DNA from: Candidatus Micrarchaeota archaeon
Lineage (GTDB): Archaea; Micrarchaeota; Micrarchaeia; Burarchaeales; JAKAKT01
DNA length: 64,000 bases
Reading direction: 5' to 3'
Assembly (NCBI GenBank): GCA_041305385.1
Contig: JBFYLO010000046.1
Location: 491 to 64,490 of the forward strand
Shown here: positions 16,987 through 60,805 of the stretch, piece after piece
How the letters are laid out: every line of letters starts with the position of its first letter
Position numbering within the stretch: position 1 is the stretch's first letter
Position numbers and translations under genes: made by a program
Notes under the pieces: generated by a model
Seen by the model: only the letters and a program-made list of their open reading frames with translations
What the model was told of the DNA's origin: nothing
Database searches by the model: none

Positions 16987-17005
16987 CCCTGTCGGGCAGA
17001 ATATC

Positions 17006-17129: not shown

Positions 17130-17220
17130 TTACAACCCTTAGCGTAGGCCTTAGAGGAACCGAGTTTCATTAACACCGGCAACTATAACCTTTTTATTCG
17201 CCTTTTGTCATAATATCGGC

Positions 17221-18186: not shown

Positions 18187-18192
18187 TTCCAG

Positions 18193-18393: not shown

Positions 18394-18431
18394 GGTACCC
18401 CTTTTTGGTGAATCCAGTATAAAATACTAAC

Positions 18432-43481: not shown

Positions 43482-43489
43482 AAAAACGC

Positions 43490-44230: not shown

Positions 44231-45117
44231 GACCCCTCGCGTTTAAGGAATGGATCATATCTGATGAGCCCCAGCTTCTTCTTAAAGGCCACCTCCAAAT
44301 ATCCTGCTCTCGCGAAATAGGAGGCTAAGAAATGGTTGGTGGCAATACCCGCCCATCCATCAAGGAACGCCCCGTAAGTTATGAGCCCGTGGAGGAAATA
44401 GACGGGGTAGCCCAGGAGTATGAAGGCCCATTTCACCAGGGGGTTCCTAGAGAGATACTCCCCTTTCTGCTCTCTCTCGACTTTCACGTAGATATCATGC
44501 TTTTGCCTTATTCTCTCCGCCCCGGCAGTGTAATAAAGATGATCATAGGCGATGTTGGAGTAGAAGTGCTTCCCCTCAATTCTCGGGGCCTCGTGAATTT
44601 TCATGTTCCAATTGATTTTGCAGTTTTTCCTGTAAAACCTGGGCTCATGGTGGGGCCTGTAAAATCCATGCCCAAACCATTTCCCAGGCGCGTAGAAGTG
44701 TTTTGAGAGGAGCCAAATTACATCGTAATCGCTTTGTTTTGCGAGCTTCGGGAGCTCAGCCCGGGCTTCTTCAGTAAGCCTTTCATCTGCATCTATGTGA
44801 AGTATCCACTCATAGCGTGCGTTCTCGTTCAAGAGTGCCCTCTCCACATCTGCCCAGTTCTTTTCAGTCGGGTTCTTTTTTCGGATTACCCTGGCGCCAG
44901 CACCCAAAAGAATCTCAGCCGTCCTGTCATTGCTCTCATGGTCTATCGCGACTATCTCGTCTACGACCCCCCGCAGGTTCGGGAGGAGTTCCGAGAGGTT
45001 CTTCTCCTCGTTTTTTACCATCATGCACGCGGTTATCCATTTTTTTGCAGTTGCCATTTTCCACGCCTTCCCATACGCCAGCGCTTGCTGAAGAACTTCT
45101 AGGGATACATGAAGCAA
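44227..45117 (-). CDS. Glycosyltransferase family 2-like
   Basis: ACMMVKNEE, IDHESND, HIDADE DxD-type motifs; start uncertain (several in-frame Met). Confidence 0.55.
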   Translation of the reverse strand: MLHVSLEVLQQALAYGKAWKMATAKKWITACMMVKNEEKNLSELLPNLRGVVDEIVAIDHESNDRTAEILLGAGARVIRKKNPTEKNWADVERALLNENARYEWILHIDADERLTEEARAELPKLAKQSDYDVIWLLSKHFYAPGKWFGHGFYRPHHEPRFYRKNCKINWNMKIHEAPRIEGKHFYSNIAYDHLYYTAGAERIRQKHDIYVKVEREQKGEYLSRNPLVKWAFILLGYPVYFLHGLITYGAFLDGWAGIATNHFLASYFARAGYLEVAFKKKLGLIRYDPFLKREGS

Positions 45118-45156
45118 ATTTCCGCATGTTGCTTAGACCACAGGCAGTTTTTTATT

Positions 45157-45208
45157 GTATTGGAATTTGCTAATCCCAATGCGGCCAAATTTCTACGGAA
45201 ATTTGTCC
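45157..45208. repeat. 52-bp conserved intergenic element, copy 2 of 3
   Basis: 48/52 identical to copy 1; 40 bp upstream of the start (45117) of the minus-strand GT2 gene. Confidence 0.75.
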
Positions 45209-45490
45209 CGCCATCCCCAGGCTTAAATAAACTAGCCTATCGTTTTAATGTTTTCTCCCAAGCCCAAAGAACACAGAAAAAGCCAAGCAACAAACCCGAG
45301 CTTGAGCTGGCCCGCAGGAGCTACACCACTCCAACCTGATTTTTCGGGTTCGCCGGCGTTGCGCGCTCGGCGTTGGCGAGGCTCGGGCGCAACCCGAGTT
45401 ATCTCGTTGGTTGGGCGCATATGTCCAGGCTTATTGAGAAGTATATCCTCTCAGACAAAAAGTGGCTTCTTTTAAGAAATGCAGGAAATG

Positions 45491-46759
45491 CTAATCCTGG
45501 TTTATCCGCTTAAGCCCAAAGCCCACAAGCGCATATTTTTTTCTGCCAGCAAACCTGTGCCGAAGGAGATTGAATTCAAACCTTATAACCATCAAGGAAG
45601 CGAAAACTCCAGCGGAGAGGATGTTCGAGACTATCTGGAGAGAGCTGTTCTCTAAGTAGTAGTAGAACTTCTGGCTCGGTTCGTGGTAAAGGATTATTTT
45701 CCTGCTCATTATAAGGTTCGTGAGCGCAAGCTCGTTGAAAATTACGACCTCCCGATTCAGCCTGCGGGCGAATCTCAGTAGCCTAGCGAGCGGATTTGCA
45801 GAAAAAACCGTAATATCCTTTTCCTTTATGGGCATCTTTTTCGACAACTCCCCCTTAATCTTGCCAAAGAGAGTTGAAGAAGAGGAATCCAGGTCTGCGG
45901 TTGGCCGCGAGAACGAGAAACTTGTGCACTCCTGAGGGAAGGAGTTTGCGAATTCTTTTTTCAGAAGTTTTGCGTGAATCGCATCTTCGACCGCTTCTTT
46001 CATAAGTCTTCCTGCAGGATTCCCCGTCCTCCTAAAGTAGATTTTAAGCGAGAAAGCGAACATCGCAGAGTTCAGGAAGCGGAGCAGGTTCGGCTTCTGG
46101 TAGAGATAGTAAAACATCTGGTTCCTAGTTAAGTAAAACAGAGCGGAGAGCGGCCTGACTTTTGGTCTTGGGTGGTCGAAGAACACGCCCACGTAGGCGG
46201 AGTTGATGCCTGCGGCCCCTATGCGGTTTGAAAGCTCTATGTCCTCCCAGAACATGTAATAAGGGGCATAGGAGAAGCCGATTTTCTCGAAAGCGCTGCG
46301 GTGGAACATCGTGCACATGGCGACGTTCGCCCTGCAATCCCCATAGTGCTGGTGCTTTGCGTGGGAGACGAGCGCCCCATCGCCGAGTGCTTTTGAAAGT
46401 CCCTCTATGAGGTTTTTTGAAAGCGGGACTGCATCATCATCAGTCACCATTATCTTCTCATAGCCCCGGTCAAAAGCCCACTTCTGCCCTGAAAAAAACC
46501 CGCCAGCCGCCCCGGTGTCTTCTTTGCGCTCAAGCAGGTTCACAGGGCCCCTGAGTTTTGAAACAATTGGAATCAGGGGTGCAGCATCGGTAGCGATTAT
46601 AATGAGGTCCGAGGGCTCCGTCTGCATCTTCCAGGCTTCAATCTGGGCGAGCGCCAGTTTCTCGTTTGTCCCCAAGGTCGGGAAAACCCAAGCTACGCTG
46701 TTTACTTTTTGCTTTACGGAAATGCTTTTCAATTCCCAGAGCCCAAATTCATCGCTCAT
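45491..46759 (-). CDS. Putative glycosyltransferase (GT-A-like N-terminal domain, long C-terminal extension)
   Basis: VTDDDAVP DxD-like motif after a Rossmann-like beta-alpha start; weak. Confidence 0.4.
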   Translation of the reverse strand: MSDEFGLWELKSISVKQKVNSVAWVFPTLGTNEKLALAQIEAWKMQTEPSDLIIIATDAAPLIPIVSKLRGPVNLLERKEDTGAAGGFFSGQKWAFDRGYEKIMVTDDDAVPLSKNLIEGLSKALGDGALVSHAKHQHYGDCRANVAMCTMFHRSAFEKIGFSYAPYYMFWEDIELSNRIGAAGINSAYVGVFFDHPRPKVRPLSALFYLTRNQMFYYLYQKPNLLRFLNSAMFAFSLKIYFRRTGNPAGRLMKEAVEDAIHAKLLKKEFANSFPQECTSFSFSRPTADLDSSSSTLFGKIKGELSKKMPIKEKDITVFSANPLARLLRFARRLNREVVIFNELALTNLIMSRKIILYHEPSQKFYYYLENSSLQIVSNILSAGVFASLMVIRFEFNLLRHRFAGRKKYALVGFGLKRINQD

Positions 46760-46821
46760 GCGCTTCCCTCAAATGCATTGCATAGCAATGGCCGTTTTCT
46801 GCCCACTTTTCAAGTCCCGGC

Positions 46822-48138
46822 TCAGTGCTTGCTTAAGAACTCAGCGAACTTATCCGCGACGTACTCCCGCATCTCATCTATAAGCCCCGGGTAGACTCCG
46901 ACCCAGAACGCGCAGTTCATTATCGTGTCTGAGTTTTTAAGTTCCCCGGCAACTTCGAATTTCTCCTCAAGATACGCGGGCTGCCTCGTTAAGTTTCCCC
47001 CAAAAAGCATCCGCGTAGCTATCCCCCTGGACTCAAGATAGTCTACGATTTCCCCCCTGGTGAATCCGGCGTCCTTGCGTACAGTCAGGAGGAAGCCGAA
47101 TGGAGATGGGTCCGAGCCCTTCGTCTTTACGGGCAGGATGAGCTTGTGCTTCCACACGGAGAGCTTTTTATGGAGGAATTCCCAGTTTTCACGCCTTTTC
47201 CTTACGAACTCCGGCAATTTCTCGAGCTGTGCAAGCCCTATTGCCCCCTGGATATCGAGCATTTTCAAATTATACCCTATGTGTGAATAGATGTACTTGT
47301 GGTCGTATCCATATGGCAGGTCCCCGAGCTTCCACTTGAACCTCTTCTTGCATGTGTTGTCATTCCCAGTCGCGCACCAGCAGTCCCTACCCCAGTCCCT
47401 GAAGGACTCAACTGCTCTCTTGAGGACCGGGTTCGAGGTGAGTACTGCACCTCCTTCCCCGGTTGTAATATGGTGCGCAGGATAAAAGCTGAGAGTCGCC
47501 AGGTCCCCGAACGTCCCAACATGCTTTCCGCGAATCGTCGAACCAAGGGCGTCGCAGCAGTCCTCGACCAAATAGAGGCCATGTTCCTTTGCAATCTTCC
47601 CAATCCTCTCAGCGTCGAAAGTGTTCCCAAGAGTATGCGCAAGGACTATGGCTTTTGTCTTTTCGTCGATTGCCTCCTCGACCATCTCTGGAGTTGGGTT
47701 ATATGTATCCAGTTCAACATCAATGAATCTCGGGACCAGTCCATTCTGGAAAATCGGATTCAGCGTAGTTGGGAATCCGGCTGCAGCAGTGATTACTCTG
47801 TCCCCGTTCTTCAGCCTTTTCTCCCCGAGCAAATGGGAGGTGAGAGCTGAAACCGCAAGGAGATTTGCCGATGAGCCGGAGTTTGTCAGCGAGCAGTATT
47901 TCAGCCCAGTGAATTTCGCAAGGCCCTTGCTGAACTCCCGGCAAAACCTCCCTTCCGTAAGCCAGAATTCGAGGCAGGCGTCAACAGCACCAACTACCTC
48001 GTTTTCATCATAAACCCTGCCGGCATAATTTATCCGCGACTTTTCTGGCAAAAACGGAGGTGCGTTTTTTGCCTTAAGCGAACAATGCCTTCTAACCAGC
48101 TTTAGAATTTCCTCTTTAACTGCTGTTTCATCGGTCAT
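46822..48138 (-). CDS. DegT/DnrJ/EryC1 family PLP enzyme of the dehydrase type (RfbH/DdhC E1-like or ColD-like; catalytic Lys replaced by His)
   Basis: SFYPAHHITTGEGG where aminotransferases have SFHxxKxxxxGEGG; 438 aa matches RfbH length. Confidence 0.65.
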   Translation of the reverse strand: MTDETAVKEEILKLVRRHCSLKAKNAPPFLPEKSRINYAGRVYDENEVVGAVDACLEFWLTEGRFCREFSKGLAKFTGLKYCSLTNSGSSANLLAVSALTSHLLGEKRLKNGDRVITAAAGFPTTLNPIFQNGLVPRFIDVELDTYNPTPEMVEEAIDEKTKAIVLAHTLGNTFDAERIGKIAKEHGLYLVEDCCDALGSTIRGKHVGTFGDLATLSFYPAHHITTGEGGAVLTSNPVLKRAVESFRDWGRDCWCATGNDNTCKKRFKWKLGDLPYGYDHKYIYSHIGYNLKMLDIQGAIGLAQLEKLPEFVRKRRENWEFLHKKLSVWKHKLILPVKTKGSDPSPFGFLLTVRKDAGFTRGEIVDYLESRGIATRMLFGGNLTRQPAYLEEKFEVAGELKNSDTIMNCAFWVGVYPGLIDEMREYVADKFAEFLSKH

Positions 48139-48198
48139 GCATTTTATTTAAAACGTTGCATTTTTATGCTATCCGCAGGAAATGTATTTGGGCATGAA

Positions 48199-49089
48199 AT
48201 GCGAAAGAAGATTCTCCTCACAGGCGGAAGCGGTTTCATAGGGCGAAACATCCTAGAAGAGCTCTGCAAAAAATATGAGATATCCGCTCCAAAGCACGCG
48301 GAGCTCGAGCTTGCGGATAGCGGGGCGGTCGAGACCTACTTGAAAGTGAACGATTTTGACATAGTGATACATGCGGCAAACATCGGGGGTAACCGGAAAA
48401 CCAACGGAATCGGTGGGATATGCGAGAAAAATCTCCGCTCTTTTTTCAACATCGCCAGGTGCAAGGGACACTTCGGCAGGATGATACAACTTGGGAGCGG
48501 GGCCGAATATGATAAAGGAAGGCCGCTAAAGCTAGTAAAGGAAACTGACTTTGATTCATTTGTCCCAACCGATGAGTTCGGTTTCTACAAGTATCTCTGT
48601 TCCAAATATATAACAAAAGAGGAAGGGATAACATGCATCCGGATATTTGGCTGTTACGGGAAATATGAGGATTACGAAGTTCGCTTCATCTCAAATGCAA
48701 TATGCAAAGCGGTGTTTGGCCTCCCAATCACAATAACCAACAAAAACGTCTTCTTCAGTTACCTTTATGCGAAAGATTTGGCAAAAATCCTCGACCGGTT
48801 CATCGAAAAATCTCCGACGCAAAAATTCTACAATGTTGCGCCAGATAGTCCAGTTGATTTGCTTTCAATAGCGAAAAAAGTCATCCAGGTTTCTGGCAAA
48901 AACCTAAAAATAATCCTGAAAAACGAGGGCCTTGGCCCGGAATATAGCGCTGACAACTCATTGCTCAGGAAGGAACTGCCCCATTTCAAGTTCACGAGCC
49001 TTGAAGACGGGGTTCAAGAGCTCTACAACTGGTATTCTCTTAACAAAGGCAAACTAGACAAACGAAAGCTCGAGGCAGACAGGTATTGA
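48199..49089 (+). CDS. NAD(P)-dependent nucleotide-sugar reductase/epimerase (short SDR; RfbJ/YerF-like 4-ketoreductase candidate)
   Basis: LTGGSGFIGRNI, YxxxK (YLCSK); start taken at MRKKILLTGG. Confidence 0.65.
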   Translation: MRKKILLTGGSGFIGRNILEELCKKYEISAPKHAELELADSGAVETYLKVNDFDIVIHAANIGGNRKTNGIGGICEKNLRSFFNIARCKGHFGRMIQLGSGAEYDKGRPLKLVKETDFDSFVPTDEFGFYKYLCSKYITKEEGITCIRIFGCYGKYEDYEVRFISNAICKAVFGLPITITNKNVFFSYLYAKDLAKILDRFIEKSPTQKFYNVAPDSPVDLLSIAKKVIQVSGKNLKIILKNEGLGPEYSADNSLLRKELPHFKFTSLEDGVQELYNWYSLNKGKLDKRKLEADRY

Positions 49090-49099
49090 GCCAGTGGCC

Positions 49100-49609
49100 C
49101 TATTTCTTCTTAACTAGCTTTAGTACCTCTTTCATCCACGGGCCCATGTCCTTAAAGTGCGGCGAGGTTATTATGTTCCCGTCGACTACGACTGGAGCGT
49201 CTATATATTCAGCACCGCTATTTATGAGGTCATCCTTGCATCCCTTATAACACGTCGCCTTCTTTCCTCGCATTATCCCTGCGGATATAAGCACCCATGG
49301 CCCATGGCACACGGCTGCAACAATCCTCTTTTTCTCGTACATTTTTTTGACAAACTCAAGGACTTCAGGAATTTGCCTCACTCTGTCAGGAGCCTCAAGG
49401 CCCCCAGGGATAACCACCAAATCATATCCATCTGCAGTGAGGTCCTTTGTGTCGATTGTCGCCTTGATTGTGACGCCATGCTTTCCTCTGACCTCTAACT
49501 TGTCTTTTGTCGCTACATCTACGGTGAACCCCTCTTCAAGGAGGCGGTAGTATGGGTATACGAGTTCAGAATCCTCAAATCCCGGGCCAGTTATAATGAC
49601 AGCTTTCAT
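49100..49609 (-). CDS. DJ-1/PfpI family protein (intracellular protease I-like)
   Basis: Conserved nucleophile elbow AAVCHGP and VIPGG motif; 169 aa. Confidence 0.8.
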   Translation of the reverse strand: MKAVIITGPGFEDSELVYPYYRLLEEGFTVDVATKDKLEVRGKHGVTIKATIDTKDLTADGYDLVVIPGGLEAPDRVRQIPEVLEFVKKMYEKKRIVAAVCHGPWVLISAGIMRGKKATCYKGCKDDLINSGAEYIDAPVVVDGNIITSPHFKDMGPWMKEVLKLVKKK

Positions 49610-49613
49610 ATGT

Positions 49614-50663
49614 TCACCTCTTCAATTCCTTAATCCCTGTTAATGCAGCTATTTCAGCGAATCCCGCTAGGTCAGCATCAGTGACTGGGATTCCCGTTTT
49701 CAAGCGCTCGGCGAATGCTTTTTTTTCAGGATCGTTCGCAACCATTACGGGCTTTGCAGTGTCAACCGGTTCCAAGGCACGCAACTCATCCATAAGCGCC
49801 TGCATCCTTTTCTTGAATGTCTTTTGGTTCTCAAACCTGGATATATCCATCGCCATGACGAAATGCCCAAGCTTTCTCCTCCTGCTGATGTCGTCAGAAT
49901 AAAGCTTCTCAACATGCGGCCCATACGCCATCCCTGTGAGAATGCTTGAGAGAACTTCAACAACAAGCCCTAACCCATATCCCTTATACCCCCCAATCGG
50001 GAGAAGCCCTGCAACCTTGTCCGGGTCAAGGCATTCGTTTCCTTTAGCATCTACTGCCATCCCGGGCTCAAGGCTCTTCCCTTTTTCCTTATAAGCAAGC
50101 ACCTTGTTTCTGGGAATCACGCTTGTCGCCATATCAAGGCAGAACGGCTCCTTTTCCATACAAGGGGCTGCAAAGCATATCGGGTTTGTGCCTAGAAACG
50201 GCTTTTTGCCATTGAACGGAACCACTTGGGCCTCGGCATGCGTGGCACAAATGCCAATCATTCCCAACCTCGCAGCCCGGAGCGAATAGAGTGCAGCTGC
50301 CCCGAAGTGGGTCGAGTTCTTTATTGCAACAGCTCCAATCCCGGTCTCCTTTGCAACCTCAATTGCCTTGTCCATCCCAGCGGTTGCTGCTGGGATACCA
50401 TACCCATGGTCTGCGTCCATAACTACCGTGGCCGGCCCAGTCCTTCTGAAGTCGTATTTAGGGCTTCCGTTTATCCTTCCAGAAAGCTTTGCCTTTACGT
50501 AGTGCGGCATAAGCCGAACCCCGTGGGAATCAACCCCCCGAAGCGAAGTCTCGATGAGGCCGCCAATCAAAAGGTCCCTCTGCCCCTGTTCGACACCTAT
50601 TTTAGATAACGCCATTTCGAAAAAGTTCTTAAGCACCTTGGGATTCAAGTAAGTTTCAGCCAT
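49614..50663 (-). CDS. Ldh_2 family malate/L-sulfolactate/L-lactate dehydrogenase (ComC-like)
   Basis: GVDSHGV, HFGAAALY and overall Ldh_2 pattern; 349 aa. Confidence 0.65.
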   Translation of the reverse strand: MAETYLNPKVLKNFFEMALSKIGVEQGQRDLLIGGLIETSLRGVDSHGVRLMPHYVKAKLSGRINGSPKYDFRRTGPATVVMDADHGYGIPAATAGMDKAIEVAKETGIGAVAIKNSTHFGAAALYSLRAARLGMIGICATHAEAQVVPFNGKKPFLGTNPICFAAPCMEKEPFCLDMATSVIPRNKVLAYKEKGKSLEPGMAVDAKGNECLDPDKVAGLLPIGGYKGYGLGLVVEVLSSILTGMAYGPHVEKLYSDDISRRRKLGHFVMAMDISRFENQKTFKKRMQALMDELRALEPVDTAKPVMVANDPEKKAFAERLKTGIPVTDADLAGFAEIAALTGIKELKR

Positions 50664-50673
50664 AAATACACCA

Positions 50674-52479
50674 CTAACTCTTATCGCTTACCAGTATGTT
50701 CTTCTTCAGTTCTTCTCTGCTGAGAAGCGGGTGGAGGTCCTCAAGAGGCCTTGAGACTATCTTCCCGTTCGCATCAATCGTTGAAGAAAGGCGCGGGGTT
50801 ATCTGTTGATCAGGCGAACCAACAAGCTCGCAGACAGTCGGTTCCTTCCAAGAGAGGACCTTTTTTATTTTTTCCCTTATCTCACCGTTGTGTCGTATTC
50901 TTTCAGTCTTAAACCCATATGCCTTAGCTACTTCCAGGATGTCGGGAAGGCAGACCCCTGACGTCTTGTCACACCCTACGAAATGGGAGCCAAAGTAATT
51001 CTTTTGAGTGTTTCTAATTGTGACATACCCGCCGTTACTCAGGACGAAAATCTTTATCGGCAGTGAGTAAGTGATGATAGTTTGGAGTTCCTGGATGTTC
51101 ATTTGTATACTCCCATCCCCAGTTATGCATATCGTGCGCCTCCCGCTCCCGACGCAAGCTCCTATTGCAGAAGGCAGGTCCCAGCCCATGGCGGCCATCC
51201 CCCTGGAAGTCAAAAAGCGCTGGCCCCTTTTTATCTTGAATGCCTGGGAGCTCGTTATGTACGCAGTGGCAGAACTTGATGGGACGATTACATCATTTTC
51301 ACTAAGCAAACCTGAAAGCACATCTACGAAAACATATGGGTTCACATGCCCCTGCTCTTCGCAATATTCCGGGAGCGAAACCGGGTACTTCTTATTCCAT
51401 TCCAAGCATCTTCCAATCCACTCAGCATGTTTTTTCGTCTTGTGTGCCTTTCCATTAAGCCGATTGAGCATCTCTTCCATGAACACTTTCGCATCGCTTT
51501 TGATTTTGAGCGCAGGATGCAGGATTTTCTTGTCAAGCTCGGCTTCAGAAATGTCCACCATTGCTAGTTTTGCTCCCCTCGCGAAGCTTTCATGATTATA
51601 CCCTATCTGCTGAATGCCAAGCCTCGCCCCTATTACCAGCAGGAAATCTGAGTTCTGTATTACGAAACTTGCTGCCCTCTGCCCTCCAAGCATATTCGGG
51701 CGCCCAAAATAGAGCTCGTGGTCATCTGGCAAGAAATCTATCGCGCCCCAGGTTAAGAGAACCGGTATTCTAAGGGCTTCGACTAGCCTCTCGAATTCTG
51801 GGAGCCCATGTGCGAGCCTTACCCCATTTCCCGCAAGGAGAACCGGGCGCTTTGCGGAAAGAAGGAGGGTTATCACTTCTTCGACTTGTCTACTTAAAGC
51901 CTTCTTGCCAAGCTCTTCATTTTCTTTTTCCGGGGTGAATCCCTTAAGAGTTTTTTCATCAACTTGCGTTGCTTGTATGTCAAGAGGTATGTCAAGCCAG
52001 ACCGGTCCGGGCCTCCCGCTCGTTGCAAGGTAAAGGGCCTTCTCGAGATGATAACGTATTTTCTCAGGCTCAATGACGAGCTCGGAATATTTTGTTATTG
52101 GCCTCACGATGTCTATGATGTTCAATTCCTGGTACCCGTTTTGCCTGAGCCCTCCGTTCAATAGGTCAGATTGCTTTACCTGACCGGATACGACAATTAC
52201 GGGTATCGAGTCAACCCATGCTCCTGCAATTCCGGTTATGGCGTTTGTGCTGCCAGGTCCCGTAGTTACATTCACTAATCCAACTCCATCCGTCACTCTT
52301 GCATATCCCTCAGCAGCAATCGAGGCCGCCTGCTCATGGAGCGTGCACACATACTTCATTTTCGTTGCCTTTCCAAAAGAGTCGTTCAGGTGCATGGCGC
52401 CACCTCCGCTGAGCATGAAAACGTGCCGTATCCCGCACTCTTCCAGAAACCTTACTATGTAATCAGATACCTTCAACAT
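50674..52479 (-). CDS. Thiamine-pyrophosphate enzyme of the acetolactate-synthase superfamily (YerE/sulfoacetaldehyde acetyltransferase-like)
   Basis: Three-domain ALS architecture: N-terminal pyrimidine-binding domain, central domain, C-terminal GDGS...N TPP-binding motif (ICITGDGSIQMNIQEL...NGGY). Confidence 0.8.
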   Translation of the reverse strand: MLKVSDYIVRFLEECGIRHVFMLSGGGAMHLNDSFGKATKMKYVCTLHEQAASIAAEGYARVTDGVGLVNVTTGPGSTNAITGIAGAWVDSIPVIVVSGQVKQSDLLNGGLRQNGYQELNIIDIVRPITKYSELVIEPEKIRYHLEKALYLATSGRPGPVWLDIPLDIQATQVDEKTLKGFTPEKENEELGKKALSRQVEEVITLLLSAKRPVLLAGNGVRLAHGLPEFERLVEALRIPVLLTWGAIDFLPDDHELYFGRPNMLGGQRAASFVIQNSDFLLVIGARLGIQQIGYNHESFARGAKLAMVDISEAELDKKILHPALKIKSDAKVFMEEMLNRLNGKAHKTKKHAEWIGRCLEWNKKYPVSLPEYCEEQGHVNPYVFVDVLSGLLSENDVIVPSSSATAYITSSQAFKIKRGQRFLTSRGMAAMGWDLPSAIGACVGSGRRTICITGDGSIQMNIQELQTIITYSLPIKIFVLSNGGYVTIRNTQKNYFGSHFVGCDKTSGVCLPDILEVAKAYGFKTERIRHNGEIREKIKKVLSWKEPTVCELVGSPDQQITPRLSSTIDANGKIVSRPLEDLHPLLSREELKKNILVSDKS

Positions 52480-52489
52480 CAGTTCGCCC

Positions 52490-55087
52490 CTATTCTTCAG
52501 GCAGCAAGTCTATCATCATATTCTTCTTCAGTTCATCTCGATTGAGGAACGGGAACATGTCTTCAAGCGGTTTCGAAACAAGGGTTCCGTCGGGCCGCAC
52601 GGCTGAGACAAGGCGTGGTTCTATCTCCTGCTCTTTGCTGACTTCAATGAAGCAGGCGAAAGCACCTTCACTTCTGAATAGTCCTGCCATCAGTTTGTCT
52701 AGCTCTGCGTCATTTTTTATGCGCAACGTCTTGAGCCCAAAAGCCGAGCATATCTTCTCGAGATTCGGGAATCCCTTCCCGCTTTCATCATCTGCGCCAA
52801 ATATCCTGTTCTTGAAATACGCCTTCTGTGCCTTCCTCACAGTGGAATGCCCGTGGTTGTCAAGAATGAAAATCTTTGCCGGAATCCTATACTTTACAAT
52901 CGTCGCAAGGTCTGAGAGGCCCGCGATAAGGCCGCCATCTCCACACACTGCAATTATGTTGTGTTCCTTGTCTGCTGCATACGCCCCTATTGCTCCAGAG
53001 ACGCCAAACCCTGGAACAGGGAGCCCGGAGAACGTGATTACTTTTTGGCATTTTTTGAGCGTTAGCGCCTGCACAACTACATTCAGACCCATGCCCCGGT
53101 CAGCAACAATCACGTCTCCCTCCTTCGCAAGTTCAGAAAGTTTTTCGATGAAATGATAAACGTCTACGAATTCGTCGCTTTTTCTCAGCCTAGCTTCTAC
53201 AAGATATTTCTTCTTCCACTCCCTGCACGTTCCCATCCATGTAGAGCAATCTGGGAGCTTCTCGTTTGCGAGTTGCCGCTCGAGTTCCGCTATGAAATCC
53301 TTTGCGTCAGCGACAATCGGAAGCTCGGGAGAGATAGTGAATTTCTTAACCTCTTCTGGGTCAATGTCAACCACAACCTTCTTTGCCTCCCTTGCGAAGG
53401 CATCGTGCTTGCACCCTATCTCCTGCATGGACAATCTGCTTCCTATCACTATCAGAAGGTCGGAATTCTGCACTGCGAAGTTGGCTGAGCGGTTGCCAAA
53501 CGAACCGAACACCCCGAGGAACTGGCGGTGCCCGGTTTCGATAAGGTCCTTTCCGTTAATGCTTACAACAATCGGGACTTTGAGTTTGCCAATGATTGTC
53601 CTCAGCTCTTTTTCAGCACTAGAAAGCCTTATTCCATGTCCAGCTATAATAAGGGGCCTTTTCGCGCCTTTCAGTAATTCGACCGTGCGGGCAACGTTTC
53701 TAGCGAGCCTCGCCCGAGCGAAGTCATTATCCTCCAGCGTCTCTCCTGGAGCAAATGCCCGCAGTTCATCCTCATCAATCACCCTGCTTTGTATGTCAAG
53801 AGGTATGTCAAGCCAGACCGGTCCGGGCCTCCCGCTCGTTGCAAGGTAAAGGGCCTTCTCGAGATGATAACGTATCTCTTCCGAGTTATCGACACGGGCA
53901 GCGTACTTTGTTATTGGTTTTACAAGCGAGATTGTGTCGAGTTCGCTTATGCCAACCTGCCGCAGCCCAGTGCCGCAGGCTGTTTCAGTAGATTTTGCCT
54001 GGCCCGATATGATAAGGCCGGGGACTGAGCTCACCCATAAGCTAGCAATTCCGCTTATCGTGTTTGCTGCTGAAGCGCCTGCCGCAACTACAGCTACTCC
54101 GGGCCTCCCGCTGACCCGAGAATAGGCGCCGAGAGCCATCACAGTATTCCTCTCGTCGTGAAGGAACACATACCGTATTTGTTCACTCTTGCCAACTGCA
54201 TCAAGCAGGTGAAGATTCGCCGGTCCCGGAGCCAAAAAGAACCCACCTAAACCTTTCCTCTCAAGGTACGAAACGATATAATCAGAAAGCCTAATCATCG
54301 TATCCCGCTTCTTTATGATTAGAAGTTCGACTTCCCCGCTCGCTTTGACGTTTTCCCGGTCTATTCCCTCAAGGTCAATAGTATCCCCGACAGTTGCAAT
54401 TGGTTTTCCCCCATGGCTGTTGATTCCTCCCGAAAGAAGGCTGATTGCATCCGCCTGAAGCCCCCGAAACGCCCTTCGGAACTCATTTGGTCCACTGTAG
54501 CGGGCTATGCGGATGCTGCAGCTCCCGAATTTTTTCATCGTGTTGTAATAAGCGTCGGAACCCTCAAGCGTTATGTAATTGTAGTTCTGGAGATTAATCG
54601 AGTAGTGCTCCTTGCTTTCATATGGCATTCCCGCTCTGCCGTGTGCGTCCTTGAAACGGACAAGGTCTCGCTTATTCACCGGGCTCTCTATTTCCATCAC
54701 GTAAATTCCGCCCTCAGATTTCGCAGTTGTACAATGAAAGACGCCTTTGTCTATCCTCAGTCCATCCCCTGCCGAGAGCTTGAACTCACCATTAAGTGAA
54801 GAGCAGACCGCCTCGCCGGCAATCAAAACAAGCGAGGTCTTTTTGTTTGGGTGGCAATGAAGGGAGGTCTGGAATCCTTTTTTTATGTATAATATCCAAA
54901 CGGCTACCCCCTTATTTACGAAAATCAAATATTCGTGGCCCCAGGGCTTGCGGACAACCACTCTTGAGTAATCAAAGAAGTCGTCAGCCTGGGTTGAGGG
55001 GTCAACATTAATGGCGCTCAGGGTCTTAATGTCAGACTCGCTGCGCTCAATCCGTCTTATCATATGCACCCATTGTTTTTTCAGCAT
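52490..55087 (-). CDS. Fusion protein: N-terminal cupin (sugar 3,4-ketoisomerase/MPI-like, ~260 aa) plus C-terminal ALS-like TPP enzyme (~600 aa)
   Basis: WGHEYLIF...SLHCHPNKKTSLVLIAGEA cupin metal-site motif; then full ALS fold with GDGG TPP motif (IIAVCGDGGLIAGL); paralogous to the adjacent TPP gene. Confidence 0.7.
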   Translation of the reverse strand: MLKKQWVHMIRRIERSESDIKTLSAINVDPSTQADDFFDYSRVVVRKPWGHEYLIFVNKGVAVWILYIKKGFQTSLHCHPNKKTSLVLIAGEAVCSSLNGEFKLSAGDGLRIDKGVFHCTTAKSEGGIYVMEIESPVNKRDLVRFKDAHGRAGMPYESKEHYSINLQNYNYITLEGSDAYYNTMKKFGSCSIRIARYSGPNEFRRAFRGLQADAISLLSGGINSHGGKPIATVGDTIDLEGIDRENVKASGEVELLIIKKRDTMIRLSDYIVSYLERKGLGGFFLAPGPANLHLLDAVGKSEQIRYVFLHDERNTVMALGAYSRVSGRPGVAVVAAGASAANTISGIASLWVSSVPGLIISGQAKSTETACGTGLRQVGISELDTISLVKPITKYAARVDNSEEIRYHLEKALYLATSGRPGPVWLDIPLDIQSRVIDEDELRAFAPGETLEDNDFARARLARNVARTVELLKGAKRPLIIAGHGIRLSSAEKELRTIIGKLKVPIVVSINGKDLIETGHRQFLGVFGSFGNRSANFAVQNSDLLIVIGSRLSMQEIGCKHDAFAREAKKVVVDIDPEEVKKFTISPELPIVADAKDFIAELERQLANEKLPDCSTWMGTCREWKKKYLVEARLRKSDEFVDVYHFIEKLSELAKEGDVIVADRGMGLNVVVQALTLKKCQKVITFSGLPVPGFGVSGAIGAYAADKEHNIIAVCGDGGLIAGLSDLATIVKYRIPAKIFILDNHGHSTVRKAQKAYFKNRIFGADDESGKGFPNLEKICSAFGLKTLRIKNDAELDKLMAGLFRSEGAFACFIEVSKEQEIEPRLVSAVRPDGTLVSKPLEDMFPFLNRDELKKNMMIDLLPEE

Positions 55088-55132
55088 AAATGGTTAAAAA
55101 TGCGAGGGCTCCAAAATTCCCGCGGGGCCCTT

Positions 55133-55762
55133 ATGCAGTTTAGAGCTGTTATTTTCGATTTTGATGGCACGGTTGTCCAGAGCGAGGGAATTCATTTTCG
55201 CCTCTTTCGGAAAACCCTCGCAAAGACAGGGGTAAAACTTACAAGAAAAAAATATTACACTGAGCTAATAGGCACTGGGACCGCAAGCATAATCGCTAAG
55301 TCAGTAGCCGATGCTGGAAAGGAATGTGACATCAATGCACTCGCTGAGCAGAAGCTTTCCGCTTATAGGGCGTACGTTTTCAGAAATAGCCTTCGGACAA
55401 CGCCAGGCCTTCGGACATTTCTTAAGCGCCTGAAGAAAAAAGGGATAAAAACCGCGATAGCGAGCAGCGGAAACAAGGAGACGATGTCTGAGCTCCTAAC
55501 GAGATTGAATCTAGACGCTTGGTTTTGCGTTTTAGTCGGCAGCCAAGACGTAAAGAACCGTAAACCAGATCCAGAAGTGTTCCTCAAGGCAGCAGAGAGG
55601 CTCGGAGTCAAGCCAGAAGAGTGCATAGTCATAGAGGATGCGCCACTAGGCATTGAAGCTGGGAGGCGTGCTGGGATGAGGGTAATACAATTAGAATCAA
55701 AACTCATACCGAAAGTCAACGGTTTTGAGTCCATAAAACGCTTCAGCGACCTTAAGATTTGA
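55133..55762 (+). CDS. HAD-superfamily hydrolase, subfamily IA (beta-phosphoglucomutase/phosphatase-like)
   Basis: VIFDFDGTV motif I, S/T motif II, K and EDAPLGIEAGRRAG motif IV. Confidence 0.65.
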   Translation: MQFRAVIFDFDGTVVQSEGIHFRLFRKTLAKTGVKLTRKKYYTELIGTGTASIIAKSVADAGKECDINALAEQKLSAYRAYVFRNSLRTTPGLRTFLKRLKKKGIKTAIASSGNKETMSELLTRLNLDAWFCVLVGSQDVKNRKPDPEVFLKAAERLGVKPEECIVIEDAPLGIEAGRRAGMRVIQLESKLIPKVNGFESIKRFSDLKI

Positions 55763-55789
55763 GTTAGGCGAAGGCTGTGCCCTGCCCCG

Positions 55790-56782
55790 TTATTCGCCTT
55801 TTTGCATAACGTTCTTTTTGATAAAAGAAACATACCACGGTATCGTTTCCTTCAAGCCTTTCTCTATAGGGTACTTCGCTTCCCATCCGAGCAGTTTTTT
55901 CGCCTTCTCGCTTGAGAGGTATTGGTTCTTTATTTCCCCTCCCGCCTCGTTCAGTATCACGGGCTTCAAGTCCGACTTCATCCCCTTGAGTATCTTCTGG
56001 ACGAGCTCAAGCACAGTGATCCTGTTCGCCGTGCTAAAGTTGAATGCCTGCCCAAGGACCTCTTTTCGCCCCATGTTCTCGGCTAGCCTGATGTATGCGT
56101 CCGCGGCATCCCTAACAAAAAAGTAGTCCCTTATGTAAGTCCCATCGCTCCTAATCACCGGCTTCTCGCCCAGGAGGACGGACTTGATAGTCCCCGGAAT
56201 TATTCGGTTGAAGTTCAAGTCCCCTGGCCCATAAAGGTTCCCGCATCTCGTGATGCAGACTGGGAGCCCGTAAGTATAATAGTAAGACTGCGCTATCAGG
56301 TCTGCGCAGCTTTTTGAGACGTCATATGGGTGCCTCCCATGCAATGGCGCTTCCTCAGTGTAGGGAAGCTTATCCTGGTCCCCATAGGCCTTGTCTGATG
56401 ATGCGAACACGACCTTCTTTACGAGCTTCGAGTTCCTCGCAGCTTCCATTACGTTCCAAGTTCCCTCAATGTTCGCCTTGAACGTTGCAACCGGGGAGCG
56501 ATTCGCTGCGCCAACTATTGCCTGCGCCCCAAGATGAAACACAGTTTCAATCTCGTACTCGTTCATCGCTCTCTCGACTGTCCAGTAGTCCTCAAAGTCT
56601 CCCCTGACGATTCTCGTTTTCTTGTAATCCCCCGTCTCAAACAACATTGACTCTGGGACAAGGTCCCTCATTATTATTGTTGTGTTGGCGCCTTTTGACG
56701 CAAGCTCGCCAACTACCCATGAACCCAAAAACCCGGAAGCCCCGGTCACAAGAACGTTTTTCTCGAGCCAGAATCCCTTCAT
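55790..56782 (-). CDS. rfbG: CDP-glucose 4,6-dehydratase (RfbG/DdhB-like)
   Basis: [16 protein letters not shown] catalytic motif, ~330 aa; 4-nt ATGA overlap with the rfbF-like gene. Confidence 0.65.
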
Positions 56783-57567
56783 TTCCACACCTTCCAGGGG
56801 GTCTTCCCCTCGTCCCACATCTTGTTAAGGTCGAGATAGTCTTTGTAAGTGTCCATGCCGAACCAGAATCCCCCGTGCTTTAGCATCGAGAACTGCCTAG
56901 CTTTAACGAGCTTCTCAAATGGTTCGGACTCCATGATGCAGGACTCATCGCCCGAAATGTAATCAAAGAAATCCTTCTTGAAGCAGTAGAATCCGCCATT
57001 CACATAATCCTCGAGCACGGGTTTCTCGACAAATTCCCTCACGATTCCGCTCTCGCCCTCCCGCACCATTCCCCACTTCGAGTGCGGGTGGACCGCAGTC
57101 ATTGTACCAATCCGTTTCTTCTTTTCGTGAAAGTCGAGAATTTTTTTTATGTTAACATCCGAGAGCCCATCCCCGTAGGTGAGCATGAACTCATCCCCAT
57201 CTATGTATCGTTCGATTCTCTTGACCCGGGCGCCAGTCATTGCCTTGAGCCCGGTTTCTACGAATGTTATTGTCCAGTCCTCCTCGTTCCCTCTGCGATG
57301 CACGATGTCGCTCTTCCTGTCCCGGAGCCTTATGGAAAAGTCATTGTGCATGAGCTCGTGAGTTAAGAAAAATTGTTTTATTGCGTCGCCCCTGTACCCG
57401 AGGCACAGGACGAACTCGTTGAACCCGTAGTGTGAATAAATTTTCATTATGTGCCAGAGGACAGGCATCCCACCAATTGTGACCATCGGCTTCGGCTTGA
57501 ACTCTGTCTCCTCTTTCAGCCTGGTCCCTTCGCCACCGCACAGTATTACTACCTTGGGATTTCCCAT
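56779..57567 (-). CDS. rfbF: Glucose-1-phosphate cytidylyltransferase (RfbF/DdhA-like)
   Basis: [26 protein letters not shown]...H signature of RfbF; 262 aa. Confidence 0.75.
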
Positions 57568-57874: not shown

Positions 57875-59089
57875 TTAATATTGCGTCAAACCGTATCCCG
57901 TTGTGTGTGGGGTCTTAAGGGCTTTCACCAGGCTCGCGAGAAGCAGGTAGGGGGCGAGGAAAAGGGGCAGGAGGAAGAACAGACCGAGAATCTTAAGCAA
58001 ATGCAGGGGAAGGCTTTCGTTGTCGGCAATCAGCAAGAGATGTCCGTCATCAACCTCCATATACGCTTTCTTCGGAGCAATCGAAGTCAGCGTCGCAGCA
58101 AGCCCAGAAGTCACGTTGGTTAAAACAACCCTCTTCCTGAAAAGCGCCGGCAGGCCCCTGAGAGCCAGGCCCGGCCCTTTCCCAGAATAATCGACCCTCA
58201 GGAAGCTCCCGGCAAGCTCATTTTCCTGAACAACGAAGCTCGCGAATCCACTCTCAAGGTGTTTCTTGGATTCCTTTCCAATGGTGAACAGCAGGGTGAC
58301 CTTCAGGAGCCCCAGGAAAGTTTTCCTTCCGTAACCTGGGAAAAAGAGGAGCAGCATCGGAAGCGAAAGAGCTACTGTCCCCAGGAACCGGAAGAATGCT
58401 TTCGGAACCCCAGTTATGTGCGCAGTGTTCGTCGTGTATAGCCAGTACTTGTCGAACTTTCTGTAAGTAATCTCCGAAGAATGCTGGTAATAGCGCCTGA
58501 CGATGTAAGACCGCTCCTTTATCCTCTCACTGTACTCGCAGTCGTCCGCCCCATAATAAAGAGGCTTATAGCAGAGCCCGTATCTCCTGATGAGTTCGGA
58601 TGAATAAAGCTGATAATGGAATCCCGCCCCCTGGGAAGTCTTGTATCCTTGCTCGTCTATCTGTGGCTTTTCCCCATCCGCCTCATTGATGGAGCCTACA
58701 AGCCCGCGCTCCTTGTTCTTCATCAGCTCCTCCACAAGGTCCTTGTCATAGGGAAGGCAGTCTACATCCGTTAATATCATGTATCTGTAGCCGTTCTCCA
58801 AAGCATACCTCTGCCCGGCGAATATCCCCCCCGAGCATCCGCTGTTCTCCTTTCTAACTGCAGCCACGAGCCCGAACCCAAGTTTTTTTCCCTTCATGAA
58901 GCGGGCCACCCTTTCAACTTCCCCGCCCGGCTCCATTACCACAATCACATCAAAGGCACCCACCGTCTGCTTCGAAAGCCTCTCGAGGTGCTCGAACAGC
59001 AAAGGATATTCGTTATAGAAGGGAATCACTATCAGCAGGTCCTGCCCCTGCCTGTCGAATTCACGAACTTCTGAAAAAAGGGAAACCAT
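57875..59089 (-). CDS. Glycosyltransferase family 2-like protein with C-terminal membrane segments
   Basis: LLIVIPFYNE, DVDC/DxD-like region; hydrophobic C-terminal helices. Confidence 0.45.
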   Translation of the reverse strand: MVSLFSEVREFDRQGQDLLIVIPFYNEYPLLFEHLERLSKQTVGAFDVIVVMEPGGEVERVARFMKGKKLGFGLVAAVRKENSGCSGGIFAGQRYALENGYRYMILTDVDCLPYDKDLVEELMKNKERGLVGSINEADGEKPQIDEQGYKTSQGAGFHYQLYSSELIRRYGLCYKPLYYGADDCEYSERIKERSYIVRRYYQHSSEITYRKFDKYWLYTTNTAHITGVPKAFFRFLGTVALSLPMLLLFFPGYGRKTFLGLLKVTLLFTIGKESKKHLESGFASFVVQENELAGSFLRVDYSGKGPGLALRGLPALFRKRVVLTNVTSGLAATLTSIAPKKAYMEVDDGHLLLIADNESLPLHLLKILGLFFLLPLFLAPYLLLASLVKALKTPHTTGYGLTQY

Positions 59090-59100
59090 CCAATAACCAA

Positions 59101-59832
59101 TCAGCCCTTGTTTTTCTGGGGCGGCAGAATCCCCTCAACATGCCGGTTCGCCCGCCTGTAGGCTTCGATGGTCCCTATGTCAAGCCAGTAGTCCGGCTTG
59201 CAGACATACCCTGCGAGTTCGCCGCTTGAGGCAAGGGCTGGGAAAATCGTCTCCTCGACCCTTTTCCTCTCGAGCTTCAGCGCGCTATGCGCCCCTTGCT
59301 CCAGGATGTAATAGCCGGCATTGGCGAGGTTTGACGGGGCTTCCTCGAGCTTCGGTTTCTCTACGAACCTCTTAACAAGCCCATCGCCATAGTCCGCTAT
59401 CCCGAACCGGTTCACCTCATCGTCTGGAACCTCGAAAAGCGAGAGGGTCGCAGAGCGCTTCATCTTCTTGTGAAACGCAAACATGTCCACAGTGTCTATG
59501 TTCGAGACGACGTCCCCGTAGGCCACGAAAATCGGCCCGTGGACTGCCTTCTCAGTCAATACGATTTTCAGGTCCCCGCCGGTCTCCCATCCCAATGCAG
59601 TTACCAGTTCGACCTCGACCCCATAATCCATGTGGCTTATGTAGCTTTCAATGGTGGTCCTGGAGCGCGAGACTGCCACATAAATCTTCTTTACCTCAGG
59701 GCATTTTCTCAGGTTCTCTATGGCATAATCGAGCACAGGCTTCCCCCCGACCGGGAGAAGCGGTTTCGGGATGGCGTAGGTTATCGGCCTCATCCGTATC
59801 CCCTCTCCTGCTGCAAGCACAATCCCAATCAT
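59101..59832 (-). CDS. Sugar-1-phosphate nucleotidyltransferase (RmlA/G1P thymidylyl- or uridylyltransferase-like)
   Basis: GIVLAAGEGIRMRPIT..PKPLLPVGGKP signature; start taken at MIGIVLAAG (ATGA overlap with upstream gene). Confidence 0.7.
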   Translation of the reverse strand: MIGIVLAAGEGIRMRPITYAIPKPLLPVGGKPVLDYAIENLRKCPEVKKIYVAVSRSRTTIESYISHMDYGVEVELVTALGWETGGDLKIVLTEKAVHGPIFVAYGDVVSNIDTVDMFAFHKKMKRSATLSLFEVPDDEVNRFGIADYGDGLVKRFVEKPKLEEAPSNLANAGYYILEQGAHSALKLERKRVEETIFPALASSGELAGYVCKPDYWLDIGTIEAYRRANRHVEGILPPQKNKG

Positions 59833-60743: not shown

Positions 60744-60805
60744 GTCGAAGGGAATGCAAATTCAGATTATTAACTTTTGCTACCAGCGATGATTTCTGCA
60801 GAGCC

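Follow-up and report, generated by a model that had tools for sequence, protein, structure and literature searches.

The stretch analysed here, 64,000 nucleotides of contig JBFYLO010000046.1 from a Candidatus Micrarchaeota archaeon and called the window below, carries at 46822-57567 a block of nine genes which, in the reading that we favour with moderate confidence, encodes a pathway to a nucleotide-activated 3,6-dideoxyhexose branched at C-4. The block combines homologs of the cytidine diphosphate (CDP) deoxysugar enzymes RfbF, RfbG and RfbH (E1) with two lyases dependent on thiamine diphosphate (ThDP), TPP_A and TPP_B, and with a reductase of the short-chain dehydrogenase/reductase (SDR) superfamily. 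ThDP genes linked to a reductase and to genes for nucleoside-diphosphate (NDP)-4-keto-deoxysugars are found in the window and in the related loci L068, L070 and L094-L096, cited here by our locus numbers. A first-pass annotation of the window had proposed a yersiniose-like, possibly C-branched CDP-3,6-dideoxyhexose. A branched pathway is still the best reading of these genes, but the product is probably not yersiniose itself, since the block holds additional Ldh_2, PfpI, HAD and cupin genes and a second ThDP enzyme.

The nine genes are separated by gaps of 0-27 bp, measured between the coordinates of their open reading frames (ORFs). Profile matches recover the RfbF-like, RfbG-like and RfbH/E1 genes, both ThDP enzymes and the SDR where the first-pass annotation had placed them. 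It named these genes correctly but overlooked the Ldh_2, PfpI/DJ-1 and HAD genes and the N-terminal bicupin domain, and the reductase that it called a short SDR is an extended one of 307 amino acids (aa), here SDR307. From the front end to E1, the block comprises:

56779-57567, minus strand: RfbF/DdhA-like glucose-1-phosphate cytidylyltransferase, 262 aa (TIGR02623, Pfam NTP_transferase)
55790-56818, minus strand: RfbG/DdhB-like NDP-hexose 4,6-dehydratase, 342-aa ORF (best NCBIfam model, CDP-glucose 4,6-dehydratase)
55064-55762, plus strand: HAD-IA hydrolase of the beta-phosphoglucomutase family, 232-aa ORF (TIGR02009, HAD_2)
52490-55087, minus strand: cupin-ThDP fusion protein, 865 aa
54308-55087, minus strand: bicupin domain, N-terminal part of the 865-aa fusion, ~260 aa (weak Cupin_2)
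52490-54307, minus strand: ThDP enzyme A (TPP_A), C-terminal part of the fusion, a JanthE-clade lyase paralog (three ThDP Pfam domains)
50674-52479, minus strand: ThDP enzyme B (TPP_B), a stand-alone JanthE-clade lyase, 601 aa (three ThDP Pfam domains)
49614-50663, minus strand: Ldh_2-family 2-hydroxyacid/2-oxoacid dehydrogenase, 349 aa (Pfam Ldh_2)
49100-49609, minus strand: PfpI/DJ-1-family Cys-His enzyme, 169 aa (TIGR01382)
48166-49089, plus strand: extended SDR (SDR307), 307 aa (Pfam Epimerase)
46822-48138, minus strand: E1/RfbH/DdhC, CDP-6-deoxy-L-threo-D-glycero-4-hexulose 3-dehydrase, 438 aa (NF011936)

Several genes probably start within the ORFs listed. The fusion is better started at Met9 (55063) than at the beginning of the longest ORF, in agreement with the 857-aa NCBI gene call and the family consensus; likely starts are Met24 (55133) for HAD and Met13 (56782) for RfbG, the latter overlapping the rfbF stop by 4 nt. 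The HAD gene is divergent from the ThDP operon.

In the proposed pathway, family membership suggests that RfbF would convert glucose 1-phosphate and CTP into CDP-glucose, that the 4,6-dehydratase would turn this into CDP-4-keto-6-deoxyglucose, and that E1, acting through pyridoxamine 5'-phosphate with a His for the usual Lys and a [2Fe-2S] cluster, would strip the 3-hydroxyl group to give CDP-4-keto-3,6-dideoxyglucose. The electrons for E1 would presumably come from a general ferredoxin-type donor. One or both of the JanthE-clade lyases would then decarboxylate a 2-oxoacid and add the acyl anion equivalent at the C-4 ketone, leaving a tertiary alcohol with an acyl branch, and SDR307 would reduce the side-chain ketone; we infer this addition and reduction from phylogeny, one characterised relative and recurrent synteny. 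By analogy, Ldh_2, HAD, PfpI and the bicupin could make a non-standard 2-oxoacid donor, a role proposed because these genes fill the slot of the DmpG/DmpF pair in erwiniose-type clusters.

Ldh_2 enzymes interconvert 2-hydroxy- and 2-oxoacids, PfpI/DJ-1 enzymes can turn 2-oxoaldehydes into 2-hydroxyacids, and the cupins among phosphomannose isomerases (PMI), cupin-type glucose-6-phosphate isomerases and BacB catalyse enediol or 2-oxoacid isomerisations. A possible donor route would lead from a phospho-hydroxyacid through HAD to the hydroxyacid and through Ldh_2 to the 2-oxoacid, while PfpI might act as a glyoxalase-III-type enzyme on a 2-oxoaldehyde to yield a 2-hydroxyacid, and the bicupin as an enediol or 2-oxoacid isomerase. 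Flanking glycosyltransferases would build the branched sugar into a surface glycan; together with a gene for the oligosaccharyltransferase AglB in the related archaeal locus L086, they point to a protein-linked surface glycan as its destination.

The deoxysugar front end

Against NF011936, whose cutoff is 423 bits, E1 reaches 669.5 bits, and it matches the Yersinia E1 structure 3BCX with 518 bits. The motif SFYPAHHITTGEGG (SFYPAHHIT) stands at residue 217, and its first His, His222, aligns with His220 of Yersinia E1, replaced by Lys in the mutant structure 3BB8 (H220K); the replacement of the Lys that binds pyridoxal 5'-phosphate (PLP) by His, reported in the first-pass annotation, is thereby confirmed. 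The cysteines C195-X57-C253-X-C255-X7-C263 are all present and all conserved in the alignment to 3BCX, in the spacing C-X57-C-X-C-X7-C that we take to be the published [2Fe-2S] ligand motif of E1. Judged by profile score, complete cysteine motif and His for Lys, the PLP enzyme is a genuine E1/RfbH dehydrase and not an ordinary aminotransferase, an assignment made at the level of sequence and in line with the earlier one.

RfbF matches TIGR02623 over its full length with 294.8 bits, against a cutoff of 300.25, and its next-best family scores 90 bits. Its orthologs in the archaeal loci L087 (85% identity) and L086 (71%) adjoin RfbG and RfbH. RfbG reaches 201.8 bits against TIGR02622, below the cutoff of 278.45, and 181.7 bits against a dTDP-type dehydratase model; its orthologs in the same two loci (84% and 73% identity) come after RfbF. 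This conserved synteny, together with a location between RfbF and E1, is the basis on which RfbG was assigned its function.

The window holds no candidate for the E3 (DdhD-type) reductase, as the first-pass annotation had also stated: a motif scan of all ORFs of >=60 aa detected neither a plant-type [2Fe-2S] motif nor an FNR motif, and Pfam scans of ~49 window ORFs found no Fer2 or FNR domain. E3 is likewise absent within +/-9-10 kb of the Pfam-annotated E1 loci L068, L082, L086, L087 and L093-L096. SpnQ, a homolog of E1, is served by general ferredoxin or flavodoxin systems, so a missing E3 does not disqualify the pathway. The absence of E3 from all E1 loci examined suggests that, outside enterobacteria, E1 is as a rule reduced by generic ferredoxin-type systems.

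Locus L082 of Thermodesulfovibrio thiophilus (7886-20110) carries, directly beside flagellin genes, the genes of RfbF, RfbG, an E1-like protein of 541 aa and a ThDP enzyme of the JanthE clade. The same locus encodes a NeuB-SAF-cupin fusion protein, and the same NeuB-cupin fusion is present in the Bathyarchaeia E1 locus L094 (1-485).

ThDP lyases and their partner proteins

TPP_A and TPP_B each contain the Pfam domains TPP_enzyme_N, TPP_enzyme_M and TPP_enzyme_C, and both keep the catalytic Glu together with the GDG and Asn of the ThDP-Mg motif. The characterised protein closest to TPP_B is JanthE of Janthinobacterium sp. HH01 (PDB 8RPH/8RPI/8RPJ). TPP_B matches 8RPH over its full length with 459 bits and 38.6% identity, as against 264 bits for the best acetolactate synthase (ALS), and the cupin-ThDP fusion matches it with 356 bits, as against 222 for the best ALS. 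The identity of the window enzymes is 33-39% to JanthE and 28-30% to 5AHK, which is presumably PpYerE.

In a neighbour-joining tree (594 columns, 200 bootstraps), JanthE and all ThDP enzymes of the window and the related loci form one clade with 100% bootstrap support, and this clade, 5AHK and an archaeal 5AHK-like enzyme are split from Escherichia coli IlvI and Gcl, also at 100%. TPP_A falls within a 99% subclade with the cupin-fused copies of other loci that carry two ThDP enzymes. L094, L095 and L096 have ThDP enzymes that group with the JanthE-type sequences and share 43-44% identity with TPP_B. A C-terminal PLED(L/M)xPxLxR motif is common to the JanthE clade and absent from IlvI, Gcl and PoxB; both TPP_B and JanthE carry PLEDLxPLLxR. 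The clustering with ALS or sulfoacetaldehyde acetyltransferase (Xsc) that the first-pass annotation had said would count against its reading is not seen: the tree and scores below the ALS and Xsc cutoffs identify TPP_A and TPP_B, as far as sequences can, as YerE-like lyases of the JanthE branch and not as ALS.

JanthE (PDB 8RPH) is described as a ThDP lyase that couples C3-C6 2-oxoacid donors to ketones and is classed as YerE-like; its literature states its physiological substrates as unknown, and it is under engineering as a biocatalyst. It differs from the window enzymes in its ThDP motif, which is CDG where both of them have the canonical GDG, and it is not reported to be fused to a cupin, as TPP_A is.

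Other two-TPP loci depart from these motifs. In most loci with two ThDP genes (L001, L002, L008 and L010) the fused copy has CEDRG, CEDSG, CEDHG or GKKG instead of GDG, with a degenerate NN, and may be non-catalytic; the solo copy often has GEG, and both window copies are canonical.

An ordinary metabolic role for the two enzymes, as ALS, glyoxylate carboligase or Xsc, or together with Ldh_2 in a coenzyme-M-like sulfolactate route, is most improbable. It is true that the top NCBIfam names for both are ALS models (384 and 345 bits against TIGR00118), with glyoxylate carboligase, Xsc and L-sulfolactate dehydrogenase lower, and that source databases call homologs 'acetolactate synthase large subunit'. 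All of these scores, however, lie far under the curated cutoffs (TIGR00118 538, Gcl 791, Xsc 620, sulfolactate dehydrogenase 500); TPP_B has only 225 bits against the Xsc model NF005713, and Xsc is outside the top 25 families for the fusion. No ilvH/ilvN-like ALS small-subunit gene adjoins the ThDP genes, and the window contains neither an ALS small subunit nor partner genes of the ilv, com or xsc type. The 100% split from IlvI and Gcl and a genomic context consistently devoted to glycan synthesis also oppose these identities, which were rejected on the combined grounds of cutoffs, tree and context.

The fusion architecture itself is widespread. More than 120 protein clusters match it over the full length at 40-50% identity, and 206 fusion loci were confirmed among GTDB species representatives (at least 206 species), in Elusimicrobia, Omnitrophota, Planctomycetes, Patescibacteria, Chloroflexi, Bacteroidetes, Nitrospinae and others, as well as in Woese-, Pace- and Nanoarchaeia. 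The window proteins were mapped onto 81 fusion loci, 50 of them well flanked (>=4 kb on both sides). A PfpI homolog is present in 48 of the 50; over all 81 loci there are 69 cases of such a homolog, and in 63 of them it lies <=300 bp from a cupin or ThDP gene. The well-flanked loci also contain HAD (17/50, with a second HAD family in 13 further loci), a second stand-alone ThDP enzyme (16/50), RfbF (12/50) and Ldh_2 (7/50).

Unbiased clustering of all ORFs in the fusion loci gave as frequent neighbours B12-radical SAM proteins (31 loci), radical SAM/SPASM proteins (28), methyltransferases (26), classical SDRs (24), HldE-like kinase/nucleotidyltransferases (24), GmhA-like isomerases (12) and NUDIX proteins (12). 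Such varied neighbour sets suggest that the module is a portable tailoring unit operating on different sugar-nucleotide pathways, of which the E1 pathway would be one. An altronate/galactarate-type dehydratase, a maker of 2-keto-3-deoxy acids, lies near the fusion in 8 loci, which fits the idea of cluster-encoded 2-oxoacid donors.

Our literature search on an association of PfpI, cupin and thiamine enzymes found no published account. It is possible, though we hold this only tentatively, that bicupin, PfpI and JanthE-type ThDP lyase form a new three-part sugar-tailoring system, fused or adjacent in at least 206 species of bacteria and DPANN archaea, in which PfpI and cupin are catalytic partners that produce or process the carbonyl donor or the product, and whose products are new acyl-branched or chain-extended sugars. 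If true, the module in this archaeon would feed an E3-independent CDP-3,6-dideoxyhexose pathway leading to a sugar new to archaeal glycans.

Some of the loci show further variation. In L034, L035, L036, L040 and other loci of Omnitrophota and the Planctomycetes-Verrucomicrobia-Chlamydiae (PVC) group, PfpI and the cupin-ThDP gene occur with HldE-like, GmhA-like, HAD, several B12-radical-SAM, SPASM and altronate-dehydratase-like genes, which suggests that the uncultured bacteria concerned make heptose-type sugars with extensive modification. A second RfbF-like paralog lies directly upstream of PfpI in L061, L062, L068, L070-L073, L076 and L079-L081 (Bacteroidetes, Verrucomicrobia, Patescibacteria); it is 34-41% identical to RfbF (233 bits against TIGR02623 in L068) and additional to the RfbF that precedes RfbG.

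Among the partner proteins, SDR307 matches the Pfam family Epimerase with 78.8 bits and has weak PDB matches; it is classified from its sequence as an extended SDR of the NDP-sugar epimerase/reductase type. Orthologs with 58-64% identity directly adjoin the ThDP gene in L095 and L096 and RfbH in L087, and others with 44-52% identity lie just downstream of ThDP, Ldh_2 or PfpI genes in L025, L043, L068, L070 and L071. SDR307 is probably the reductase partner of the branching enzyme, in the position of YerF or ErwF.

Ldh_2 matches PF02615 with 367 bits (cutoff 38.8) and remains under all NCBIfam equivalog cutoffs (AllD 246/356, ComC-type sulfolactate dehydrogenase 223/500); its PDB relatives are type-2 malate/lactate dehydrogenases. 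It adjoins the cupin-ThDP genes in 11 of the 81 loci, among them L068 and L070, two syntenic operons of the candidate phyla radiation (CPR). HAD scores 153.1 bits against TIGR02009, whose cutoff is 153.35, and 139 bits against HAD_2.

PfpI scores 176 bits against TIGR01382 (cutoff 139.05) and 160 bits against PH1704. Across 49 module-linked PfpI homologs the Cys101-His102 pair of the nucleophile elbow is invariant and the acidic residue 75 is conserved, and because these residues are kept, the module-linked proteins are probably active enzymes. The window protein shares the Cys-His elbow with the PfpI/PH1704 and DJ-1 glyoxalase III/deglycase family, in which it is placed by a score above the TIGR01382 cutoff; unlike that family in general, PfpI proteins of the module type are found in glycan loci, almost always next to a bicupin and to a ThDP enzyme of JanthE type.

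The bicupin domain reaches 23.5 bits against Cupin_2, under the cutoff of 27.2, and has no NCBIfam and no PF01050 match. Its AlphaFold2 model (predicted local distance difference test 87.5) has two beta-barrel halves, for which Foldseek returned generic cupins only (OxdC, CDO, PMI including Thermococcus PMI, and BacB/AerE), and the PDB profile search gave only weak matches to 3-His cupins (CDO, ADO). Invariant residues include H77, H79, H118, E132, E134, K139, R144, D147 and R151; the conserved site consists of H77, H79 and H118, with Lys/Thr at the position of the Glu in the Gln/His-His-Glu-His metal site of type II PMI. At E<=1e-30 the family comprises 419 clusters, most of them unfused proteins of ~250 aa, and PF01050 is recorded for some homologs only. 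Type II PMI, RmlC and FdtA were rejected as identities for the domain, with no qualifying Pfam or NCBIfam match and with weak or generic PDB and Foldseek matches.

Related loci and competing readings

The block resembles, in different respects, several known systems. The yersiniose A pathway of Yersinia pseudotuberculosis (DdhA/B/C/D, YerE and YerF) shares its first three enzymes with the window and, like it, has a ThDP enzyme of the decarboxylase/ALS superfamily with an adjoining NAD(P)-type reductase. It differs in having DdhD/E3. The window ThDP enzymes, moreover, belong to the JanthE branch and not to that of 5AHK, a comparison from which YpYerE itself is absent, and the window adds two ThDP paralogs (one fused to the bicupin), Ldh_2, PfpI and HAD in an archaeal host.

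In the erwiniose cluster of Pectobacterium atrosepticum, the acetaldehyde dehydrogenase ErwJ and the aldolase ErwI make 4-hydroxy-2-oxopentanoate, which ErwE ligates to the ketosugar before ErwF reduces the product (PMC9306805). The logic is like that of the window, with genes for a deoxy-ketosugar acceptor, a YerE-like lyase, a reductase and cluster-encoded donor enzymes. L095 and L096 reproduce the erwiniose set, DmpF-DmpG-ThDP-SDR307 ortholog beside RfbH, with a ThDP enzyme 44% identical to TPP_B. The window lacks the aldolase/dehydrogenase pair and has Ldh_2, PfpI, bicupin and HAD in that slot, so its donor should be a 2-oxoacid other than that of erwiniose. CDP-ascarylose-type pathways, which consist of E1, a 5-epimerase and a 4-reductase, have the same RfbF/RfbG/E1 front end and an archaeal example in L093; the window differs from them in having ThDP enzymes and no RmlC-type epimerase (PF00908).

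The E1 loci compared with the window are:

L087, closest relative: RfbF-RfbG-SDR307-RfbH in the same order, without the JanthE-type block (identities RfbF 85%, RfbG 84%, RfbH 75%, SDR307 63%)
L086, RfbH 71% identical: AglB(STT3)-SDR-ThDP-RfbF-RfbG-RfbH-GT2
L094, Bathyarchaeia: HAD-ThDP-RfbH
L095, Bilamarchaeaceae: DmpF-like, DmpG-like, (HpcH), ThDP and SDR307 ortholog, beside RfbH
L096, metagenome contig: DmpF-like, DmpG-like, ThDP and SDR307 ortholog beside RfbH, like L095 without HpcH
L008, Nanoarchaeia: RfbF/G/H with cupin-TPP_A, TPP_B and PfpI
L093, related to Methanocalculus natronophilus: RfbF-RfbG-RfbH-RmlC-like-SDR, ascarylose type, without a ThDP enzyme

The ThDP enzyme of L086 has 588 aa and its best PDB match is 5AHK (344 bits). 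In L087 a split transketolase pair stands just upstream of RfbF. Compared with L087, the 6.7-kb HAD-to-PfpI block of the window appears as an insertion between RfbG and SDR307.

These loci bear on the proposal that a single glycan island holds two independent pathways. RfbF, RfbG and RfbH with SDR307 as C-4 reductase would then make an unbranched CDP-3,6-dideoxyhexose of the paratose, abequose or ascarylose type, and the inserted HAD/cupin-TPP_A/TPP_B/Ldh_2/PfpI block would make another sugar or substituent. The RfbF-RfbG-SDR307-RfbH cassette of L087 stands without the module, 43 of the 50 well-flanked module loci have no E1 and lie beside HldE/GmhA heptose-type, aminotransferase or radical-SAM genes, and the Methanocalculus-like L093 demonstrates a ThDP-free ascarylose-type E1 pathway in archaea. 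We nevertheless regard two separate pathways as rather unlikely.

In the Woesebacteria (CPR) loci L068 and L070, cupin and ThDP enzyme are encoded by two abutting genes instead of one fused gene, and the module lies inside a one-strand operon bounded by RfbF and RfbH. That of L068 reads RfbF-RfbG-RfbF2-PfpI-cupin-ThDP-Ldh_2-SDR307-GT2-RfbH, nearly the gene content of the window and again with no E3; L070 has the same order, RfbF-RfbG-RfbF2-PfpI-cupin-ThDP-Ldh_2-SDR307-(GT2)-RfbH, and L043 and L071 show the arrangement less compactly. The SDR307 orthologs of L095 and L096 abut a ThDP gene. L087 itself has the split transketolase, a ThDP enzyme, just upstream of RfbF, so its cassette is not ThDP-free. 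Finally, a ThDP enzyme accompanies E1 in five of six other archaeal E1 loci (L008, L086, L087 with its split transketolase, L094 and L095; L096 not counted), the sixth being the ascarylose-type L093.

The lyases might alternatively serve chain extension, joining a 2-oxoacid to an aldose phosphate by ThDP-dependent acyloin condensation; ketose-aldose isomerisation by the cupin, a dephosphorylation or mutase step by HAD and nucleotide activation would follow. Some cupin homologs do match the type II PMI family PF01050, the structural search returned Thermococcus PMI among others, only PfpI accompanies the fusion more often than HAD does, and many loci have HldE-like and GmhA-like genes or the second RfbF-like transferase directly upstream of PfpI. 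But the window has no sugar kinase, its own cupin has a sub-threshold Cupin_2 match and no PF01050 or NCBIfam match, and the nearest characterised enzyme, JanthE, is a lyase that accepts ketones. Branching of an NDP-ketosugar also accounts better for the synteny with E1, and chain extension is in our judgement improbable.

Several points weigh against C-4 branching of a CDP-3,6-dideoxyhexose, which remains our preferred interpretation. The window has no E3 reductase, and both RfbF and RfbG fall below their curated NCBIfam cutoffs, so CDP is a presumed nucleotide. JanthE is the sole biochemically characterised member of its clade; the tree has few outgroups and no YpYerE, ErwE or MyGE sequence. 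The roles given to PfpI, cupin, Ldh_2 and HAD are analogies only, and the fold search with the cupin was non-specific. The existence of RfbF-RfbG-SDR307-RfbH without the module in L087 means that the 6.7-kb block could be functionally separate. An E1-type RfbH is present in only 7 of the 50 well-flanked fusion loci, and most fusion loci have other sugar-nucleotide genes (HldE/GmhA heptose type, DegT aminotransferases, radical SAM), so the module is not specific to 3,6-dideoxyhexoses.

Archaeal setting and surroundings of the block

ThDP-dependent C-branching of CDP-3,6-dideoxy-4-hexulose is already known in bacteria, from yersiniose and erwiniose. What appears to be new is the archaeal setting, the placement of the JanthE clade in sugar-branching contexts and the near-obligate partnership of bicupin and PfpI. 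The first-pass annotation had called such pathways essentially unknown in archaea, which holds for experiments and reviews but fails for annotation, where RfbH is assigned automatically in many archaeal genomes: homologs ~60% identical are annotated RfbH in Bilamarchaeaceae, Micrarchaeota, Nanoarchaeota, Bathyarchaeia, Burarchaeum and Methanocalculus natronophilus. CDP-sugars, 3,6-dideoxyhexoses and C-branched sugars do not figure in reviews of archaeal N-glycans, and a survey of 12,939 genomes describes 3,6-dideoxyhexoses as 'rare', found chiefly in Salmonella and Yersinia and lacking in most Archaea.

The loci in the window, in Nanoarchaeia, Bathyarchaeia and Bilamarchaeaceae, and beside AglB predict that branched 3,6-dideoxyhexoses recur in archaeal surface glycans, and offer concrete targets for glycan mass spectrometry and nuclear magnetic resonance. 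For the JanthE clade as a whole, the genomic contexts point to NDP-4-keto-deoxysugar acceptors and cluster-encoded 2-oxoacid donors. The near-obligate linkage of PfpI/DJ-1 and bicupin likewise provides a testable lead to a physiological small-molecule role of PfpI proteins, whose function is debated.

The block is flanked on both sides by further glycan genes:

41443-46759: left flank, two GT4 and two GT2 glycosyltransferases and a 422-aa protein without a Pfam match
57875-62065, minus strand: right flank, a GT2 with a C-terminal membrane part and a second sugar-nucleotide set
59101-62065, minus strand: second sugar-nucleotide set, comprising a sugar-1-phosphate nucleotidyltransferase, a UXS-like decarboxylase-type SDR and UDP-glucose dehydrogenase

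Given the right-flank set, a uronic acid or a pentose is probably a further constituent of the same glycan. Per-gene GC content is 0.45-0.51 across 43490-57567, including 0.49-0.50 in the left flank at 43.5-46.8 kb, versus 0.54-0.55 in housekeeping genes of the same contig. Such a low-GC block is typical of a variable, horizontally exchanged glycan island and consistent with horizontal acquisition; no tRNA genes that could mark an island were found in the window.

Archaeal marker genes in the window include AlaRS (TIGR03683, 862 bits), Hef, LonB, Cdc6, DUF655 and a cupin-type glucose-6-phosphate isomerase at 24697-25413 on the plus strand (PF06560, 132 bits). Cupin-type glucose-6-phosphate isomerase is known mainly from Euryarchaeota; this gene, DUF655, LonB, Hef and the CetZ/TrmB genes of the relative L087 point to a host of euryarchaeal type. 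Elsewhere in the window, ORFs lie at 9130-10470 (minus strand) and at 10996-13686, 13696-14523 and 23784-24638 (plus strand). Two large ones among them, of 446 and 896 aa, have no Pfam match and adjoin a beta-helix/NosD-like protein and a CARDB-domain protein; they and their neighbours may be surface proteins, which would make them candidates for carrying the glycan.

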